NCBI GenBank assembly: GCA_049287345.1
Contig: JBAQFQ010000017.1
Coordinates: 4,555-68,554, forward strand
Direction of reading: 5' to 3'
Length of the DNA stretch: 64,000 nucleotides
Source: Candidatus Moraniibacteriota bacterium
GTDB lineage: Bacteria; Patescibacteriota; Minisyncoccia; Moranbacterales; UBA9337
A program made the translations under genes and the position numbers. Under the pieces are notes generated by a model. It worked only from the letters and a program-made list of their open reading frames with translations, did not search any database and was not told where the DNA came from. Shown here piece after piece: positions 4,336 through 50,362 of this stretch (position 1 is the stretch's first letter; each line of letters starts with the position of its first letter).

Positions 4336-5217
4336 TTGAAGCAATTTAAAATCTTTAATAAAAAAAATATGAATCAAAAAATAATGCCAGTCTATCTGTT
4401 TGTTACATCATTCTTTTTATTAGCAGGTTTTGCTACTATGGTGGCAATAGCCAAGAATGATAATGCTAACAATAACGAAAATAAAAGCGAAAAGTCAGAA
4501 AAAACTGAGAAGTCAGATAAATCCTCTCAGTCGACGAAGGATGGTGAAAAAGTGGTTAATCTTAAGGATTATAAAAAGGCAGATACAACAAAAGGAGAAA
4601 GTAATGCAAAAATACACAAAGAAAAAACTACTGAGGTGATAGAAAATTTAGAACAAGAGCAGCTACAAGTCCAAACAGAAAATGCAGGTACAGAAGAAAA
4701 ACTTAGGGTAGAAACTAGAAATAAAGCAAAGAAGCAAATTGAAGAGGTGGCAACTGAGCAAGAAGCCTCTCAGGAGCAAGTAGCAGAAGCAATTGAAGAA
4801 GTTGAAAATGATGGTGCAACTAAGAAATTTTTTCTGGGGCCAGATTATAAAAACTTGGGGCAATTAAGAAGTGAGTTGGTGCACAATAGAAATCAAATTA
4901 GAAAACTTACGCAAGCCATTACTGCATTATCTCAAAATGAAGGAGATATAACTAATCTTCAGTTACAACTGCAAACTCTCACACAAGAGAGAGAAAGAAT
5001 TAAAAATATAATTACCACCAATCAAGATGGTTTTAGCTTGTTTGGTTGGGTGAGCAGGTTTTTAACTAACTATGAAGAAACTCCAATAAATGAAACCGAG
5101 GAGGAAGAATTAATAACAGAAGTTGAAGAGACAATTATTGATGACGGGGTAGTGGATAACATTGATGCTCCAATAGTAACAGAAACTTCAGCGCCAGTTA
5201 CAGTGGTTACTCCATAG
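4336..5217 (+). CDS. Membrane-anchored coiled-coil protein with acidic C-terminus (hypothetical)
   Basis: N-terminal TM helix, KE-rich coiled-coil heptads, D/E-rich tail; no recognisable catalytic motif. Confidence 0.45.
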   Translation: MKQFKIFNKKNMNQKIMPVYLFVTSFFLLAGFATMVAIAKNDNANNNENKSEKSEKTEKSDKSSQSTKDGEKVVNLKDYKKADTTKGESNAKIHKEKTTEVIENLEQEQLQVQTENAGTEEKLRVETRNKAKKQIEEVATEQEASQEQVAEAIEEVENDGATKKFFLGPDYKNLGQLRSELVHNRNQIRKLTQAITALSQNEGDITNLQLQLQTLTQERERIKNIITTNQDGFSLFGWVSRFLTNYEETPINETEEEELITEVEETIIDDGVVDNIDAPIVTETSAPVTVVTP

Positions 5218-5241
5218 GAAGGTCTTTGAATTTAAATATGA

Positions 5242-5270
5242 AAAACACTCCCTCGGGGAGTGTTTTTTAA
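5242..5270 (+). terminator. Rho-independent terminator
   Basis: Hairpin AACACTCCC-TCG-GGGAGTGTT followed by a T tract. Confidence 0.6.
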
Positions 5271-5333
5271 TTGGGTAATAAAGTCGTTTAATATTTGAAA
5301 AGAGTAAGTTGAATTAAGAATTTCTGAAATAGT

Positions 5334-5361
5334 TTGACAAAAAAAATGAATTTGCTATTAT
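5334..5361 (+). promoter_or_regulatory. Sigma70-like promoter for lexA (TTGACA-N16-TATTAT), with palindrome TGTTTGGTAAACA at 5377..5389
   Basis: Near-consensus hexamers ~100 nt upstream of lexA. The perfect 5-N3-5 palindrome sits just downstream of -10 and is a candidate operator. Confidence 0.4.
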
Positions 5362-5460
5362 GAATTATATAGTGAATGTTTGGTAAACAAGCGCAAGTGA
5401 GCATTAAAACAAAAGAACATAAAAACAATAAGGCAATTTTAATTTTTTAATTTAAAAAAT

Positions 5461-6105
5461 ATGGAAATATTAACCCCCAAACAAAAAATAGTATTGCAAG
5501 CTATCAAGAGTTATTATTCAGAGCACGGCATCATGCCCACAATTCGAGAAATTAAAGATGAAGCTGGGAATCTTGGTTTAAATTTAAAGAGTATCCGAAG
5601 TTTCTTTAATTACTTAAATGAGCTAGAGGAAAAAGGATATATTCAAAGAACTTCTGAAGATAGGGGGATTGAATTGAGAGGGCTTAATCAGCAGATGTTT
5701 ATCGATGTGCCAATTCTAGGTATGGCAAATGCAGGAATGGCCTTGGCTTTTGCAGATGATTATATCGAAGGTTATTTAAAAGTTTCCAAAAGTATTGTGC
5801 GAGATAAAAATGTTTTTGCGATTCAGATTTCTGGAACCTCAATGAATAAGGCAAAAGTAAATAATAAGAATATTGGTGATGGGGATTTTGTTTTAGTAGA
5901 AAAAACGGAGGACTATGTTTATGGTGATAAAGTTTTAGTAGTAATTGATGGTTTGGCTACTGTAAAAACATATCGAATTTTTGATGAGGAAAATATTGTT
6001 TTAGCTCCAGACTCTACTGATAAAAAGCATCAACCGATTTTCCTAACTAAGGAGGATAACTTTGTTATTACCGGTAAAGTGATTGATGTTTTAAAAATAC
6101 GATAA
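5461..6105 (+). CDS. lexA: LexA repressor (S24 peptidase)
   Basis: N-terminal winged HTH (MPTIREI..LGL.S.RS); catalytic Ser in ISGTSM and Lys in VKTYR context; C-terminal S24 fold. Confidence 0.85.
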   Translation: MEILTPKQKIVLQAIKSYYSEHGIMPTIREIKDEAGNLGLNLKSIRSFFNYLNELEEKGYIQRTSEDRGIELRGLNQQMFIDVPILGMANAGMALAFADDYIEGYLKVSKSIVRDKNVFAIQISGTSMNKAKVNNKNIGDGDFVLVEKTEDYVYGDKVLVVIDGLATVKTYRIFDEENIVLAPDSTDKKHQPIFLTKEDNFVITGKVIDVLKIR

Positions 6106-8086: not shown

Positions 8087-8181
8087 TTTTTTCACTTGCT
8101 TTTAAGGGATAGTGTGATATAAATAAAGCAAAAGAAACATCGTATATTTATGAGTCGGATTATTATTTAATTTTTTATTTT

Positions 8182-8287
8182 AATCTACCTACACTCAAGC
8201 TTCGGCAGACGAGCTCGTTTTGAGTAAATTCTCCACAGCTTGCTTCAAGTAGGGTCCAGGGCAAGCCCCTAGGGTTAATACCTTTTA
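8182..8287 (+). repeat. Family-1 intergenic repeat, copy 1 (AATCTACCTAC..AAGCTTCGG..ACGAGCTCGTTTTGAGTAAATTCTCCACAGCTTGC..GC-rich hairpin..ACCTTTTA)
   Basis: ~85-90% identical to copies at 9421, 21382 and 39278, all on the + strand between + strand genes. Confidence 0.85.
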
Positions 8288-8292
8288 ATAAT

Positions 8293-9447
8293 ATGAAGAA
8301 GCTGGCTATCTTGGGAAGCACAGGTAATGTTGGGACACAAGTTTTAGATGTTGTGGATCAATATCCTGATAAGTTTAAAGTGGTGGCACTTTCGACAAAT
8401 AGTAATATTGAATTATTAAAAACGCAAATAGAAAAATATCAGCCATCTTTTGTGGGAGTAGCCGATGAAATAAAAGCTAAAGAATTAAAGGAACAAATTA
8501 ATGTTCCTATTTTTTTTGGCGAAAAAGTTAATATCCAAATTGCCCAGCTGGAGGAATATGATACTTTGATAAATGCGGTAGTCAGTTTAGCGGGGATTGA
8601 GGCTACTTTAGTCGCTATCGAAAAAAAGAAAAACATCGCCCTAGCAAATAAGGAGGCCTTGGTGGCAGCTGGTGAAATTGTATTAAAGGCAGCTAGAGAA
8701 AATGGGGTAAAGATTATGCCAATTGATTCGGAGCATAGTGCTCTATTTCAATGTTTAAATGGTGAAGATATTAAAACAGTCGAGCAATTAATTATTACTT
8801 GTTCAGGTGGGGCACTGCGAGATAAAACTAAGGAGGAGATTGAATCAGCGACAGTGGTCCAAGCTTTGGGGCATAAAACTTGGGCAATGGGAAAAAAGAT
8901 TACCATTGATTCAGCAACTCTAATGAACAAGGGTTTTGAAGTAATTGAAGCAATGTGGTTGTATGATATGCCCATTGAAAAAATAAAAGTAGTTATTCAT
9001 CCAGAAAGTATCATCCATTCGATGGTGGAGTACACTGATGCGAGCATCATCGCGCAAATATCCGAGCCAGATATGCGACTGCCTATTCAATATGCACTCT
9101 CTTATCCTGAGCGTTGGCAAGCACCAATTAAGAGATTTGAATTTAATAAAAATCTTACCTTTGCTGAGCCTGACTTGGAGAGATTTCCTTGTTTGGGTTT
9201 AGCCTTTTGGGCTGCCAGAGAATTGGGGACATTGCCAGCGGTGATGAATGCCGCCAATGATTTTATGGTGGAAATTTTTTTAAGAGGAGACTGTCGATTT
9301 GGAGAAATTTATAGAATAATTAAGCAGGTTATGGAAGCGCATAAAAATATTAAAAACCCTAGTTTGGCAGAAATTAATCAAGCTATTTTGTGGTCAAGAG
9401 AAAAATCGATGGAGTTTTTTAATCTATCTACGCCCAAGCTTCGGTAG
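8293..9447 (+). CDS. dxr: 1-deoxy-D-xylulose 5-phosphate reductoisomerase
   Basis: N-terminal ILGSTGNVG NADPH-binding motif and full-length similarity to IspC. The last ~9 codons are supplied by repeat copy 2. Confidence 0.9.
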   Translation: MKKLAILGSTGNVGTQVLDVVDQYPDKFKVVALSTNSNIELLKTQIEKYQPSFVGVADEIKAKELKEQINVPIFFGEKVNIQIAQLEEYDTLINAVVSLAGIEATLVAIEKKKNIALANKEALVAAGEIVLKAARENGVKIMPIDSEHSALFQCLNGEDIKTVEQLIITCSGGALRDKTKEEIESATVVQALGHKTWAMGKKITIDSATLMNKGFEVIEAMWLYDMPIEKIKVVIHPESIIHSMVEYTDASIIAQISEPDMRLPIQYALSYPERWQAPIKRFEFNKNLTFAEPDLERFPCLGLAFWAARELGTLPAVMNAANDFMVEIFLRGDCRFGEIYRIIKQVMEAHKNIKNPSLAEINQAILWSREKSMEFFNLSTPKLR

Positions 9448-9530
9448 GCGAGCTCGTTTTGAGTAAATTCTCCACAGCTTGCTAGTAAACAGGGTCCAGG
9501 GGCTTGCCCCTGGGGTTAATTACCTTTTAT
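9421..9530 (+). repeat. Family-1 intergenic repeat, copy 2 (overlaps 3' end of dxr)
   Basis: Same element as 8182..8287. Has a perfect 7-bp stem hairpin CCAGGGG-CTTG-CCCCTGG; the dxr stop codon lies inside the element. Confidence 0.85.
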
Positions 9531-9540
9531 TAAATAATTT

Positions 9541-21367: not shown

Positions 21368-21381
21368 GATTAATGATTTTT

Positions 21382-21485
21382 AATCCACCTACGCTAAAGC
21401 TTCAGTGGACGAGCTCGTTTTGAGCAAATTCTCCGCAGCTTACTGAAAGTAGGGTTTAGGGCTTTATCTGGGGTTAGTAATTTTT
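21382..21485 (+). repeat. Family-1 intergenic repeat, copy 3 (most diverged)
   Basis: Keeps the ACGAGCTCGTTTTGAG core. Compensatory changes TTCAGT / ACTGAA relative to the other copies. Confidence 0.8.
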
Positions 21486-21549
21486 ATTAATTAATTAAAG
21501 ATAATTTTATATATTTTTATAAAAATATATAGGAATTATCCACAAACGT

Positions 21550-39251: not shown

Positions 39252-39277
39252 TTATAGTTTACTGAGGAATAATTTTT

Positions 39278-39384
39278 AATCTACCTACGCCCAAGCTTCG
39301 GTAGACGAGCTCGTTTTGAGTAAATTCTCCACAGCTTGCTGTAAATAGGGCCCAGGGCTTGCCCCAGGAATGGACACCTTTTAT
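39278..39384 (+). repeat. Family-1 intergenic repeat, copy 4
   Basis: Same element as 8182..8287. Confidence 0.85.
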
Positions 39385-39492
39385 TTAAATTTTAACCAAG
39401 GGTGCTATATTGGAAATTGAATTAGGCTATTAGATAAGAGGATGGGTTTGAGTGGGGTTGATTATTAATATAATCTATGTATAATAGTTATT

Positions 39493-40597: not shown

Positions 40598-40669
40598 TAC
40601 CCCCACCAGGAATCGAACCTAGATCTTTAGCTTAGAAGGCTATTGCTCTATCCGTTGAGCTATGGGGGC
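40598..40669 (-). tRNA. tRNA-Arg (anticodon TCT)
   Basis: Manual cloverleaf: acceptor GCCCCCA/TGGGGGT, D stem GCTC/GAGC, anticodon loop CTTCTAA, T loop TTCGATT, discriminator A; CCA not encoded. Confidence 0.8.
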
Positions 40670-40725: not shown

Positions 40726-40798
40726 TGCGCCGTGGGGGATTCGAACCCTCGACCGTTTGCTTAAGAGGCAACTGCTCTACCAACTGAGCTAACAGCGC
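40726..40798 (-). tRNA. tRNA-Lys (anticodon CTT)
   Basis: Manual cloverleaf: acceptor GCGCTGT/ACGGCGC, D loop AGTTGGTA, anticodon loop CTCTTAA, T loop TTCGAAT, discriminator A. Confidence 0.8.
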
Positions 40799-47682: not shown

Positions 47683-48990
47683 TTATAATTTTAATTGAGC
47701 GGTGGTAGTTAGGACTTTCCAATTGTTTAGAGTCAGAGCTTTTTCTGCAGAGGTCATTTTTTGCCAACGATAAATAGCCGCCACACTAATCATAGTAGCA
47801 TTATCAGTTGAATAATTAGAAACTTGAGACTGAAATTGCACGTGAGGAAGATTTTTTTTAATAGCTAAATTCATTTTTTCTCGAAGATTATCATTGGCAG
47901 AAACTCCTCCAGCAATGAAAATTGTCTGAGAATTGTGTAAAATAGCAGCTTGAATAGTTTTTTTAACTAAAACATCGGTAGCTGCCTCTTGAAATTCATA
48001 AGCCATTTCTTGGACAAAACTTTCTGGAAGCGGGTTTTTATCCTCGAGATTGTTTTCTTTTCTGTAATTTTTAACTTTGTATAAAACAGCTGTTTTTAAG
48101 CCAGAGAAGGAAAAATTAAAATCTTTGCTGTGTAACATCGGGCGAGGCAGATTATGTTTTTTGTCATTTGAAACTGGACGCCCGTTAGCCGTGACTGACG
48201 AATTGAAATTAGCCGCTTGGGTGGCTATAGCTGGTCCTCCTGGGTAACCTAAATCTAAAATACGAGCAACTTTATCAAAAGCTTCTCCCACGGCGTCATC
48301 TTGGGTTTCTCCAATTATTTCGTATTTAAAATGATCAGACATTAAAATCAATTGAGTGTGTCCACCAGAAACAACTAGAGACAAAATGGGAAATTTTATG
48401 TTAGCAGATTTAGCTGGTAGTTTAGTTAGCTTTTTAGAATCTGTATTTTTGGATGTTTCTTTATCATTAGAAATTAAATCATCTGGCATTGATTTGATAT
48501 TTGATATTGGTAATTTGGAATTTACGCTAATTTTATCGCAGATAAAATTAGCATAAATATGTCCCTCAATGTGATGAATTCCAAGGAGGGGCTTGTTATA
48601 AAGATAAGCAAGAGTTTTAGCAAAATTAGTGCCAATAAGCAGAGCAGGAATAAGGCCTGGACCATGAGTTACAGCAATTAAATCAATATCTTCTATTTGC
48701 TTATTTGCTTCTTGGAGAGCGGATTTTAAAACGGGGATGATATTTTTCAAGTGTTCTCTAGCGGCTAAATTAGGCACTACTCCTCCCCAAACGGCGTGCA
48801 GAGCTATTTGTGAAGAAATTATATTGGATAATACTAAAATTTCACCATTTTTTTCTTCTAAAATTGCGATAGCGGTTTCATCGCAAGAGGTCTCGATTCC
48901 TAAAACTAGCATAGTATTCATCATTAATATTACTTGTTTATCATAGTATTTGGGGAGAAAATAAGCAAGGTGAAGGTTATTAATATTCAA
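47683..48990 (-). CDS. tsaD: tRNA N6-adenosine threonylcarbamoyltransferase TsaD (Kae1/TsaD family) with ~45-aa low-complexity insertion
   Basis: MLVLGIETSCDET start (probable true start ~48912) and HIEGH metal-binding motif. The insertion SNIKSMPDDLISNDKETSKNTDSKKLTKLPAKSAN lies before the LVVSGGHTQL region. Confidence 0.85.
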   Translation of the reverse strand: MNINNLHLAYFLPKYYDKQVILMMNTMLVLGIETSCDETAIAILEEKNGEILVLSNIISSQIALHAVWGGVVPNLAAREHLKNIIPVLKSALQEANKQIEDIDLIAVTHGPGLIPALLIGTNFAKTLAYLYNKPLLGIHHIEGHIYANFICDKISVNSKLPISNIKSMPDDLISNDKETSKNTDSKKLTKLPAKSANIKFPILSLVVSGGHTQLILMSDHFKYEIIGETQDDAVGEAFDKVARILDLGYPGGPAIATQAANFNSSVTANGRPVSNDKKHNLPRPMLHSKDFNFSFSGLKTAVLYKVKNYRKENNLEDKNPLPESFVQEMAYEFQEAATDVLVKKTIQAAILHNSQTIFIAGGVSANDNLREKMNLAIKKNLPHVQFQSQVSNYSTDNATMISVAAIYRWQKMTSAEKALTLNNWKVLTTTAQLKL

Positions 48991-49131
48991 TACTCAACAT
49001 ACAATACTCATTCAATAATCAATAATACAATGTCCCATTAATTTGTTAAGTGTTGGATATTAAGTGTATATTGAATTTTGGTTATTTTTTTGAATAAACC
49101 CATCATTAACGCCGCAAACTGGCATTTTTGA

Positions 49132-49160
49132 TTGACAAAAAGCCTATTTGGGTGTATAAT
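49132..49160 (+). promoter_or_regulatory. Consensus sigma70 promoter TTGACA-N17-TATAAT
   Basis: Perfect hexamers; drives a ~250-nt leader before the CDS at 49415. Confidence 0.55.
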
Positions 49161-49198
49161 TATAAATTAGTACCTTGAAATAGGAAATGGCAAATTCA

Positions 49199-49309
49199 CC
49201 ACAGCAGAAAGAATTTTATGTGTCATTCCGAACTTGATTCGGAATCTCTCTAGATCCTAAATCAAGCTCAGGATGATGGGAGAAATGCAAAAAACTCTTT
49301 CTGCTGTGG
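49199..49309 (+). promoter_or_regulatory. Structured 5' leader: 14-bp long-range helix (CCACAGCAGAAAGA / TCTTTCTGCTGTGG) enclosing two hairpins with complementary loops; embeds a Family-2 element copy (TGTGTCAT at 49219)
   Basis: Hairpin 1 ATTCCGAA-CTTGA-TTCGGAAT, hairpin 2 ATCCT-AAATCAAGCTC-AGGAT. Loop CUUGA is complementary to UCAAG, a candidate kissing interaction. Confidence 0.4.
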
Positions 49310-49414
49310 CGAAACCATATCGGCCAAGTCTGACAGCGAACATCAAATTGATAAGTCTGGGACTCTGATTATTGAAATTGGAGCGAGGGACGAATCAAAA
49401 ATGGAGGTATTATT

Positions 49415-50080
49415 ATGGCAAAGAGTAAAAGGCAGATTGAAGCAATTTCTTCAGGAATGGGAGTTTTTGTAGCAATTATTTCTGGACTTGTTGAGCTTGT
49501 AAAAAGTTTCGGTGGGTCGATGGAAGATTTGTATAAGTTGGGGACTCCCGAAGGTAGACAAAAGCTGGAAGCGATCGCTTGCATTGTAGTTGGGAAAGAA
49601 ACGGAACTTAAAAATGAGTTTCTTAAACTCATCTCTGGTAATGAAACTCTCACCATTGATGCTTGCGACGGAACTAAAATTCTAGCGGAGGCAAATGATG
49701 TATTCAAATACGTGGACCTTGAATTTAAAAGTTGGAGCGCTGATCGGCGAGGGCAAGCGACTGTAGAAACCTCAGTGGAAGTTTATGAAATAGAGAAAGA
49801 CGCGACGTTTGTTCAAATGTTTAGCTCTCTCTCGTCTGATGTACGGAGACTTTGTTTTACACAAAATCAAATTATCGATTTTGTAAAAAAACATCGAAAG
49901 TGGCTTCAGACTATTGATCATGGAACATTTTTTCTATTTGAGTCCACTGGTGAAATATTCGTCGCCAACGTGAGCGTTGAATCGGGCGGCTTGCTCTGGG
50001 TGGAGGTGTTTCGCTTTGGGCACTTGAGCGTCTGGCACGTTGGGATTCCCCCTCGTTTGGTGATCCCGAAACTGGCTTGA
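49415..50080 (+). CDS. Hypothetical cytoplasmic protein (221 aa)
   Basis: Good SD (GGAGG) 7 nt upstream of the start; no recognisable domain. Confidence 0.45.
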   Translation: MAKSKRQIEAISSGMGVFVAIISGLVELVKSFGGSMEDLYKLGTPEGRQKLEAIACIVVGKETELKNEFLKLISGNETLTIDACDGTKILAEANDVFKYVDLEFKSWSADRRGQATVETSVEVYEIEKDATFVQMFSSLSSDVRRLCFTQNQIIDFVKKHRKWLQTIDHGTFFLFESTGEIFVANVSVESGGLLWVEVFRFGHLSVWHVGIPPRLVIPKLA

Positions 50081-50362
50081 AACTAAGTCACTTAGTTTCT
50101 TTAATTTTAAAGCCCCCTGATTCTTTGTCTCATTGACACTTTGAATTGGGGGGATTTTTTTTGTCTAACGAATAGGTGATAGCTAGAAAAATAGATGAAG
50201 AAATAATTTAATTTTAAAAGCATCTTCAATAAAGCTGGCATCAATATTTGGGGGTTTTTGAGTTGTTGTCTTGGGTGGAGAATTGGAGGATTGATTTCAT
50301 TAGACAAAAACCGATTCTTACCCTATATTTAGTTATAGAGTTATTGATTAAATTTAAATAAA

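Follow-up and report, generated by a model that had tools for sequence, protein, structure and literature searches.

The 64-kb window analyzed here, a stretch of 64,000 nucleotides from the genome of a Candidatus Moraniibacteriota bacterium to which all coordinates given without a locus label refer, carries on its + strand a gene (49415-50080) that encodes a protein of 221 aa and is preceded by a strong promoter and a long 5′ untranslated region (5′ UTR), hereafter called the leader. The present analysis identified this gene as a homolog of the genes encoding the variable (target) proteins of diversity-generating retroelements (DGRs) of Patescibacteria, and revealed two structured modules in its leader: (i) module 1, a long hairpin (49195-49313) and (ii) module 2, a short hairpin with internal loops (49350-49396). 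Both are conserved upstream of related genes. The comparison is based on 152 relatives of the 221-aa protein, all from Patescibacteria or Parcubacteria metagenome-assembled genomes, and on a set of 79 loci from GTDB genomes and 27 metagenome loci. The initial annotation of this stretch had emphasized a three-way junction in the leader; it mentioned neither module 2, which is the more riboswitch-like part, nor the DGR context.

Promoter, variable-protein gene and 3′ flank

As read from the sequence, the leader is preceded by a sigma-70-type promoter (49132-49160, + strand) that consists of TTGACA (49132-49137), a 17-nt spacer and TATAAT (49155-49160). It is the sole 12/12 match to TTGACA-N17-TATAAT in the whole window (one found, 0.10 expected) and the top match within 47-52 kb, in agreement with the initial annotation, which had called it the best promoter match in the window. 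The same annotation placed the first start codon about 250 nt away, and the end of the -10 box is indeed separated from the ATG by 254 nt, which leaves an untranslated stretch of about 250 nt. The spacer of the window promoter is AAAAAGCCTATTTGGGTG, and relatives (L003, L012, L014, L021 and L081) conserve TTGACAAAAAG-N4-TTTGGGTGTATAAT. Promoters were scored in 77 loci, one of which, L001, duplicates the locus of the window. In 70 of them, the 330 nt that precede the inferred start of the homologous gene contain a promoter matching at 10/12 positions or more, 16 of these 70 loci having a 12/12 promoter. It is typical of this family that a strong promoter lies 50-300 nt ahead of the inferred start. 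At the other end of the leader, an A-rich linker precedes a Shine-Dalgarno sequence (GGAGG, 49403-49407) and the ATG (49415-49417, + strand), an arrangement that is repeated in the relatives. The order promoter, modules, Shine-Dalgarno sequence and ATG is fixed across all loci, and no terminator was found between 49160 and the ATG.

A short 5′-proximal element, AGTACCTTGAA (49169-49179, + strand; family consensus AGUUCYUUWA), can be recognized by eye in most leader types. Since it sits 6-21 nt after the -10 box in most of them, it should lie near the 5′ end of the mRNA. A pattern allowing one mismatch matches this element in the first 60 nt of 45 leaders. In the window, the element can pair with the Shine-Dalgarno region over 9 bp (-10.7 kcal/mol). 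The possibility that it masks the Shine-Dalgarno sequence was rejected: over the 45 loci, the mean pairing energy is -5.25 within the own locus compared to -5.70 across loci (permutation p = 0.95).

The initial annotation found no recognizable function for the downstream gene. This stands insofar as the 221-aa protein has no match in Pfam, NCBIfam, PHROGs, the PDB sequence profile search, or BFVD and PDB searched with Foldseek, but the gene is nevertheless homologous to DGR variable proteins. The N-terminal part of the protein is helical and its C-terminal domain is conserved; the final ~40 residues of this domain are the counterpart of the hypervariable region (VR) found in its relatives. In the alignment of the whole family, the N-terminal third varies, the core is conserved and the C-terminal tail is hypervariable. 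In 40 loci, a ~115-130-nt copy of the 3′ end of the gene is found ~310 nt downstream of the stop codon. The mismatches between the gene and this copy show an adenine bias in 39 of these 40 loci and, when all 40 are pooled, 661 of the 760 mismatches have an A in the downstream copy. Downstream copies with adenine-biased mismatches are the signature of the template repeats (TRs) of DGRs. A reverse transcriptase (RT) is encoded in 39 loci and Avd in 43. Furthermore, the closest full-length homolog, P0002 (66% identity), adjoins genes carrying the Pfam domains bAvd and RVT_1. In L010, an open reading frame (ORF) located behind the gene re-encodes its C-terminal tail, with Asn at the variable positions, beside an Avd-like four-helix gene.

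The family fits DGR clade 2, a clade confined to Patescibacteria whose targets have no recognizable domains (PMC8144416). Like the targets of this clade in the candidate phyla radiation (CPR), its members are modular, lack transmembrane and known domains, carry a C-terminal VR and are associated with a TR showing adenine-specific mismatches, Avd and RT. Unlike the clade 2 loci, the window copy has no cassette, neither TR nor RT nor Avd being present in the 64-kb window. Therefore, in the absence of a TR, the window gene should be considered as a homolog of DGR targets and not as a demonstrated active target. It is an orphan copy, which either lies far from its cassette or has decayed.

In the 3′ flank of the gene (50079-50162, + strand), a small hairpin spans the stop codon (50079-50099), and CTTWGDC-like repeats are followed by an intrinsic terminator (stem 50113-50123/50143-50153, T-run to 50162, + strand; -21.8 kcal/mol, z = -4.5). 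This terminator, the first one past the promoter, is homologous to those that follow the VRs in intact DGR cassettes. Over the 79 loci, CTTWGDC-type repeats of the + strand (CUUUGUCC, CUUAGAC, CUUUGAC) reach 0.85 per locus in the first 50 nt past the stop codon compared to a background of ~0.02 (50081-50140 in the window), and they precede a terminator with a conserved loop, CUUUGACACUUG. This repeat region after the stop codon of the variable-protein gene may be the target-recognition region of the DGR.

Structure and conservation of the leader modules

Module 1 (49195-49313, + strand) is a long hairpin whose base is formed by TTCACCACAGCAGAAAGA (49195-49212) and TCTTTCTGCTGTGGCGAA (49296-49313). 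The initial annotation had reported a 14-bp long-range helix (49199-49212 with 49296-49309). Its arms are perfectly complementary, and the helix extends to 26-nt arms (49195-49220 with 49288-49313) that show 88% complementarity with three mismatches. For the 119-nt element, the folding energy is -48.7 kcal/mol (z = -8.2), and none of 200 shuffled sequences reached this value. The annotation had also made the regulatory role of the leader depend on finding this helix at orthologous loci. The base helix is homologous in 26 loci, where it is kept with compensatory changes within hairpins of 20-27 bp. Its sequences fall into three classes, UUCGCCACAGCAGAAAG, AUCAUUGCAGCUUUGA and GUAGUCAUAGCCAAAAG. 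In the alignment of the 18 basal pairs (alignment A4), 92% of the cells are paired compared to 39-51% when the register is slid, and 16 of the 18 pairs show compensatory changes.

The stems measured in 19 relatives have 16-27 bp, with at least 20 bp in 16 of them, i.e. the duplex length (at least about 20 bp in the transcript) that is expected of a leader processed by RNase III. The sense strand folds better than the antisense strand in 15 of these 19 relatives (Wilcoxon p = 0.0017), G-U pairs favoring the sense RNA. In L081, the closest full-length ortholog found, which belongs to an intact DGR, the hairpin of module 1 comprises 24 perfectly matched bp closed by a loop of 3 nt (-32.6 kcal/mol, z = -10.2). 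The length of the interior located between two conserved 11-nt cores was compared in the 26 loci: 19 have 27-36 nt, with terminal loops of ~3-25 nt; L048, L059 and L074 have 58-63 nt; and L021, L075 and the window have ~95-102 nt. In L021 and L075, this interior forms one long hairpin. The tip of module 1 is unconstrained.

In the window, this tip carries a ~67-nt palindromic insertion (49221-49287, + strand) that includes two hairpins, H1 (49225-49245; 8-bp stem, loop CUUGA) and H2 (49254-49274; 5-bp stem, loop AAAUCAAGCUC), and that can adopt two folds, a three-way junction and an extended rod. The two hairpins with complementary loops of the initial annotation do exist, and the loops are complementary over 5 nt, but the complementarity extends to H1 and H2 as a whole, which are diverged inverted copies of one another (76% over 25 nt). 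The loop-loop complementarity is only the center of this larger complementarity and therefore no separate feature. On the sense strand, the extended rod in which H1 pairs with H2 (-48.1 kcal/mol) and the three-way junction (-48.7 kcal/mol) are isoenergetic; the antisense strand clearly favors the rod (-60 kcal/mol). Furthermore, the outer (closing) pair of H1 has a pairing probability of just 0.24 and, therefore, the three-way junction is no well-defined fold. The promoter, base helix, linker and module 2 are collinear between the window and L081, where the plain hairpin takes the place of this sequence, which identifies 49221-49287 as a lineage-specific insertion. Elsewhere among the relatives, module 1 ends in a short loop or in one long hairpin.

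Given its absence from L081, the isoenergetic rod and the weak outer pair of H1, the riboswitch-like layout first proposed (helices P1, P2 and P3 plus a loop-loop contact) finds no support. That this layout does not fit the purine class, as had been noted from the start, was confirmed: the model RF00167 gives no match at the gathering threshold or at E <= 10, and the conserved junction nucleotides of this class are absent. The likeness is limited to this genome, whose minimum-free-energy fold is a three-way junction with two pairable hairpin loops; unlike in the purine riboswitch, the junction is unconserved and the 5-nt loop of the window would need complete pairing.

Rather than a functional part of the leader, the stretch 49221-49287 is somewhat more probably a functionless palindromic DNA insertion, e.g. 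a small mobile or replication-slippage palindrome, tolerated since the tip of module 1 is unconstrained. This explanation concerns the insertion only and is compatible with the role of the leader proposed below. It is in line with the lack of this sequence in the closest ortholog, the free variation of module 1 tips in both length and sequence, the origin of H2 as an inverted and diverged copy of H1, and the equal energies of the two folds. However, the insertion has no second copy within the 64-kb window, so that a mobile family is not indicated, and long tips recur in other loci (L021, L075, L048, L059 and L074) and could add function. On the evidence of the 64-kb window, membership in a family of miniature inverted-repeat transposable elements (MITEs) or other mobile palindromes was rejected, as such families are defined by multiple copies. 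The three-way junction is a local and probably neutral embellishment outside the conserved design.

Module 2 (49350-49396, + strand) lies just upstream of the Shine-Dalgarno sequence. From its base, it comprises P1a (GAU 49350-49352/AUC 49394-49396), a 2x2 internal loop AA/GA, P1b (GUCU 49355-49358/GGAC 49388-49391; GUCU with GGRC in the family), a purine-rich loop (GGGA 49359-49362 opposite CGAG 49384-49387; GGGR opposite YGAG, nearly invariant in the family) and P2 (49363-49370/49376-49383; 8 bp), closed by the terminal loop 49371-49375, all on the + strand. Among 16 sequences (alignment A2), 93% of the cells are paired and all 11 tested pairs show compensatory changes, with which RNAalifold agrees. 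Extension to 38 sequences gave 95.9% of paired cells and compensatory changes in 12 of 15 pairs, in an alignment that was fitted to the model and leans to the structure. The single-sequence fold has a z of -3.9. The covariance model R1 detects a single copy in the window, scoring 56.7 bits. It also detects module 2 ahead of the homolog in 19 loci, and once before the second DGR target gene of L010. In all cases, module 2 lies 6-12 nt upstream of the Shine-Dalgarno sequence.

A pattern scan of metagenomes retrieved 27 stretches, 25 of which are true instances of module 2, each with a Shine-Dalgarno sequence and a start codon after it; none of the 25 instances found in the metagenome contigs scanned lies away from a gene start. 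The following ORF is present on the contig for 23 of these instances (the contigs L093 and L109 end 9 and 25 codons into it) and has 200-232 codons wherever it is contained in the contig. Nine of the 23 ORFs (207-223 codons) strongly match the protein family of the window, and 12 match it weakly and have a different C-terminal variable domain, three of these 12 having their own TR with 25-27 A-type mismatches. The ORFs of L091 and L096, which are identical in sequence, are unmatched by the profile. Genes with at least four types of N-terminus, those devoid of an N-terminal domain among them, are located behind module 2. Therefore, their common denominator is to be a DGR target gene and not to encode one given protein domain. 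In L010, two tandem sets of target, TR and Avd (4641-5375 and 5591-6096) differ in their C-terminal variable domains, and both targets are located behind leaders of the module 2 type.

Other readings of module 2 were rejected. The variety of N-terminal types excludes that a leader type is tied one-to-one to an N-terminal domain, as autoregulation by that domain would suppose. An upstream mini-ORF in module 2 is contradicted by the replacement of its AUG by GUG, GCG or GCA in many members (alignments A2). The loops do not correspond to a kink-turn (K-turn) either, since their sizes and the positions of the GA pairs in the alignment do not fit the rules of this motif.

The linker between the two modules (49314-49349, + strand), conserved solely in the near relatives L081 and L083, contains GGCCAAGTCTGA, which partially repeats the 5′ half of module 2. 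In this linker, GGCCAAGUCUGA (49323-49334), conserved in L081 and L083, corresponds to GAUAAGUCUGGG (49352-49361) of that half; it may be a duplication relic or an alternative pairing partner for GGAC 49388-49391. Between the window and its near relatives, the nucleotide identity reaches 84-90% in the 3′ half of the leader compared to 64-83% in the coding sequence. Other leader types are associated with related genes: the type D leader (CCUCUCGCUGUCUUCGG...) is conserved among sister genes, and the type GAAUACAGUAAACCUCUCGCUGUCUUCGGUAUAACGAGUAGAGGCU is found in the same gene family in L035, L042-L044, L046, L050, L051 and L064 (e.g. L043:274-328). The latter could form two helices, mutually exclusive or compatible with a pseudoknot. 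Both types vary too little for a test of their structure.

The search of known families recommended by the initial annotation left the leader without a match: at the gathering threshold, Rfam 15 recognizes only two tRNA genes in the whole window (40598-40669 and 40726-40798, - strand; 67 and 65 bits). At E <= 10, the region 48950-49500 gives solely matches to miRNA precursors, on both strands, which were treated as spurious because any long hairpin yields them. No leader of 10 related loci has a match at E <= 1, and neither module 1 nor module 2 matches an Rfam family. A phage origin of the leader was rejected, as a scan of viral contigs for the pattern of module 1 was negative. Finally, searches of the open-access literature on riboswitches of Patescibacteria and on DGR-associated RNA motifs retrieved no description of these leaders. 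We regard modules 1 and 2 as conserved cis-acting leader motifs found neither in Rfam nor in this literature, the DGR, its clade and its target family being already known (PMC8144416).

Role of the leader

Taken as a whole, the region is, in our opinion, rather likely to hold the promoter of a Patescibacteria DGR-family variable-protein gene together with the 5′ untranslated leader of its transcript, a conserved and cis-acting leader that is probably recognized by a protein or by RNase III. Transcription would start a few bases after 49160 and produce a leader of ~250 nt with the 5′-proximal element, module 1, whose tip is free to vary, and module 2 ahead of the Shine-Dalgarno sequence. In this genome, the tip of module 1 has gained the ~67-nt palindromic insertion, which gives it the look of a three-way junction. 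The leader would most likely act in cis and post-transcriptionally on the stability or the translation of the variable-protein mRNA, a mechanistic step that we derive from its anatomy. The long duplex of module 1 has the size and the form of an RNase III-type processing or stabilizing site, and a trans-acting factor, for which a protein is the most plausible candidate, may bind the internal-loop hairpin of module 2. The window copy has lost its DGR cassette or lies far from it and nevertheless keeps an intact leader, which suggests that the leader is tied to gene expression rather than to retrohoming. The regulatory leader of the initial annotation is thus retained as a structured, conserved and likely regulatory element, but its purine-like architecture and its 6S-like variant find no support.

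Leaders with a long duplex cut by RNase III are those of the Escherichia coli genes pnp and rnc and the sites of phage T7 and of the lambda N leader. Like them, module 1 is a near-perfect hairpin of 20-27 bp located in a 5′ UTR, with an unconstrained tip and a helix kept by compensatory change. Unlike them, it has a base whose sequence is conserved far beyond the need of RNase III; it shares no sequence similarity with these sites, and its cleavage is putative.

Several points weigh against this interpretation. The transcription start site and any processing are predicted from sequence features. No RNase III gene was found in the 64-kb window. The loci used for module 1 were picked for having a stem, so that the proportion of paired cells is inflated, the compensatory changes between classes not being created by this choice. 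In the window itself, the antisense strand outfolds the sense strand. Among class 1 sequences, each arm keeps 17 near-identical nt between loci whose proteins are only ~43-50% identical. Since this conservation exceeds what a duplex or RNase III needs, it suggests a sequence-specific partner. Module 2 resembles a small aptamer and may have a ligand-sensing role. The proposed role is, on the other hand, supported by the perfect 24-bp duplex of L081 and by the existence of homologs of the RNase III gene (rnc) in related genomes. These homologs are located 2-3 kb or less downstream of the variable-protein gene in three of the 79 loci (L017:5157-5735, L026:4633-5256 and L063:3678-4313), a proximity that may be due to chance or to shared synteny.

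A more ambitious proposal would be that modules 1 and 2 constitute a DGR-associated regulatory RNA family that makes the synthesis of the hypervariable protein respond to the state of the cell or of the retroelement, by binding Avd, RT or the variable protein, or by signal sensing through module 2. We regard it as unlikely.

The resemblance of module 2 to an aptamer could also be taken at face value, module 2, alone or with the 5′ element, being a small-molecule or ion riboswitch that gates the translation of the variable protein. Its small hairpin with covarying stems and near-invariant nucleotides concentrated in an internal loop corresponds to what is generally expected of an aptamer in a 5′ UTR, and it is always found in this position, 6-12 nt from the Shine-Dalgarno sequence, in front of several protein families. 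Small hairpin-type riboswitches with a conserved internal loop include the xanthine/NMT1 motif and the tetrahydrofolate (THF)-II/folE motif. In their general layout, these resemble module 2, a ~47-nt hairpin with a conserved internal loop between covarying helices near the ribosome-binding site. However, module 2 differs from them by the lack of any Rfam match (all riboswitch models are unmatched), by a Shine-Dalgarno sequence that lies outside P1 and by genes that encode hypervariable binding proteins without any metabolic theme. The expression platform is not conserved: across the loci compared, the leader contains no conserved helix sequestering the Shine-Dalgarno sequence, no conserved alternative pairing and no terminator. 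Furthermore, related genes carry other leaders (module 1 only or type D), which would be unusual for a ligand sensor. Therefore, a riboswitch is improbable here.

Slightly less probable still is that the leader serves the DGR itself, as an RNA or DNA site recognized by RT-Avd or as a cruciform marking the target gene for mutagenic homing. Module 2 has the DGR target gene as its common denominator across N- and C-terminal domains, the palindrome of module 1 could extrude as a DNA hairpin and the rod, in its antisense or DNA-type form, is the more stable fold in the window. However, the known target recognition takes place at the 3′ end of the VR, where the target site consists of the initiation of mutagenic homing (IMH) sequence plus a hairpin (PMC3240598), and a conserved hairpin and repeats likewise follow the VR in the loci studied here. 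The other DGR element considered was the Sp/RT-10 motif, located between TR and RT in Bordetella phage BPP-1 (PMC5737381). The leader is, like these elements, conserved and structured in a DGR locus type but, unlike them, it belongs to the 5′ UTR of the target gene and to another transcript. It lies ~0.6 kb upstream of the VR, and the TR has its own promoter-like -10 box and terminator hairpin. The leader and the RNA flanking the TR have no shared or complementary sequence, apart from A/T-rich chance matches of 8-12 nt. The leader is also intact where there is no TR nearby (in the window, and in L087 and L099 with 10 kb of flank), and the G-U pairs favor the sense RNA in 15 of 19 loci, as mentioned above. 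The RT-motif of Rfam has no match at E <= 1 in the 10 loci scanned.

Finally, a free-standing stable small RNA, 6S-like as the initial annotation had suggested or other, is very improbable despite the strong promoter and the long closing stem, since no terminator follows the element before the ATG and the first one lies after the gene, the element always precedes a Shine-Dalgarno sequence and an ATG in a fixed order, and the 6S model (RF00013) and the other small-RNA models are unmatched. A processed fragment of the leader may be released by RNase III.

Other conserved elements and significance

The analysis of the DGR loci also revealed another conserved RNA. In L003-L071, a highly conserved region of ~220 nt (e.g. 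L009:3760-3980) is located between the terminator of the variable-protein gene and the TR. It begins right after a TGTATAAT -10 box, runs into the TR and is common to loci with different leader types. Its sequence (...CGCGGYUAMGGCUUCGGRYCAAGGUUGC...GAGAAUUUYGYCGGAUACGUCUUGCGAAAGAGUGGAU...CAGUUGGUGCRGU...) has no Rfam match at E <= 1. This region probably represents the 5′ portion of the template RNA of the clade 2 DGRs of Patescibacteria. In the window, a possible decayed remnant of this conserved RNA may be seen by eye at 50260-50300. The TR is directly followed by its own hairpin and U-run (UUCUCUCAUC...GAUGAGAGUUUUUU; L009:4102-4140 and equivalents). The avd gene is located on the opposite strand and converges on the TR, a gene order unlike that of Bordetella phage BPP-1 as summarized in PMC5737381. 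In L030, a LOOT RNA (RF03000, 81 bits; 5435-5552) is found just downstream of the DGR reverse transcriptase gene.

Elsewhere in the window, an intergenic repeat of ~105 nt is present in four copies (8178-8294, 9417-9533, 21378-21494 and 39274-39390, + strand) with a mean column identity of 80%. It contains internal hairpins (UCUACC...GGUAGA; CCAGGGGCUUGCCCCUGG) and has no Rfam match at the gathering threshold or at E <= 1. Two of its copies lie immediately upstream of dxr-like (8293) and ispD-like (9541) genes. This repeat could be an undescribed structured RNA or repeat element.

DGRs are the most extreme natural systems of protein diversification and are especially common in Patescibacteria. 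Their targets in this phylum are small and domain-less proteins, whose function and regulation are unknown (PMC8144416). The eye-catching three-way junction of the window is a local feature, and the conserved signal lies partly outside the region on which the initial annotation had put its emphasis. This work supplies concrete RNA elements, a 47-nt internal-loop hairpin and a ~24-bp duplex, as candidate motifs for RNA-motif catalogues from a poorly sampled phylum. A conserved promoter and 5′ UTR modules common to target genes of different protein families suggest that the expression of the variable proteins is controlled post-transcriptionally. If the two modules do form a regulatory RNA family coupling variable-protein production to the retroelement or to the cell, they would represent a dedicated layer of post-transcriptional control for the DGRs of Patescibacteria.

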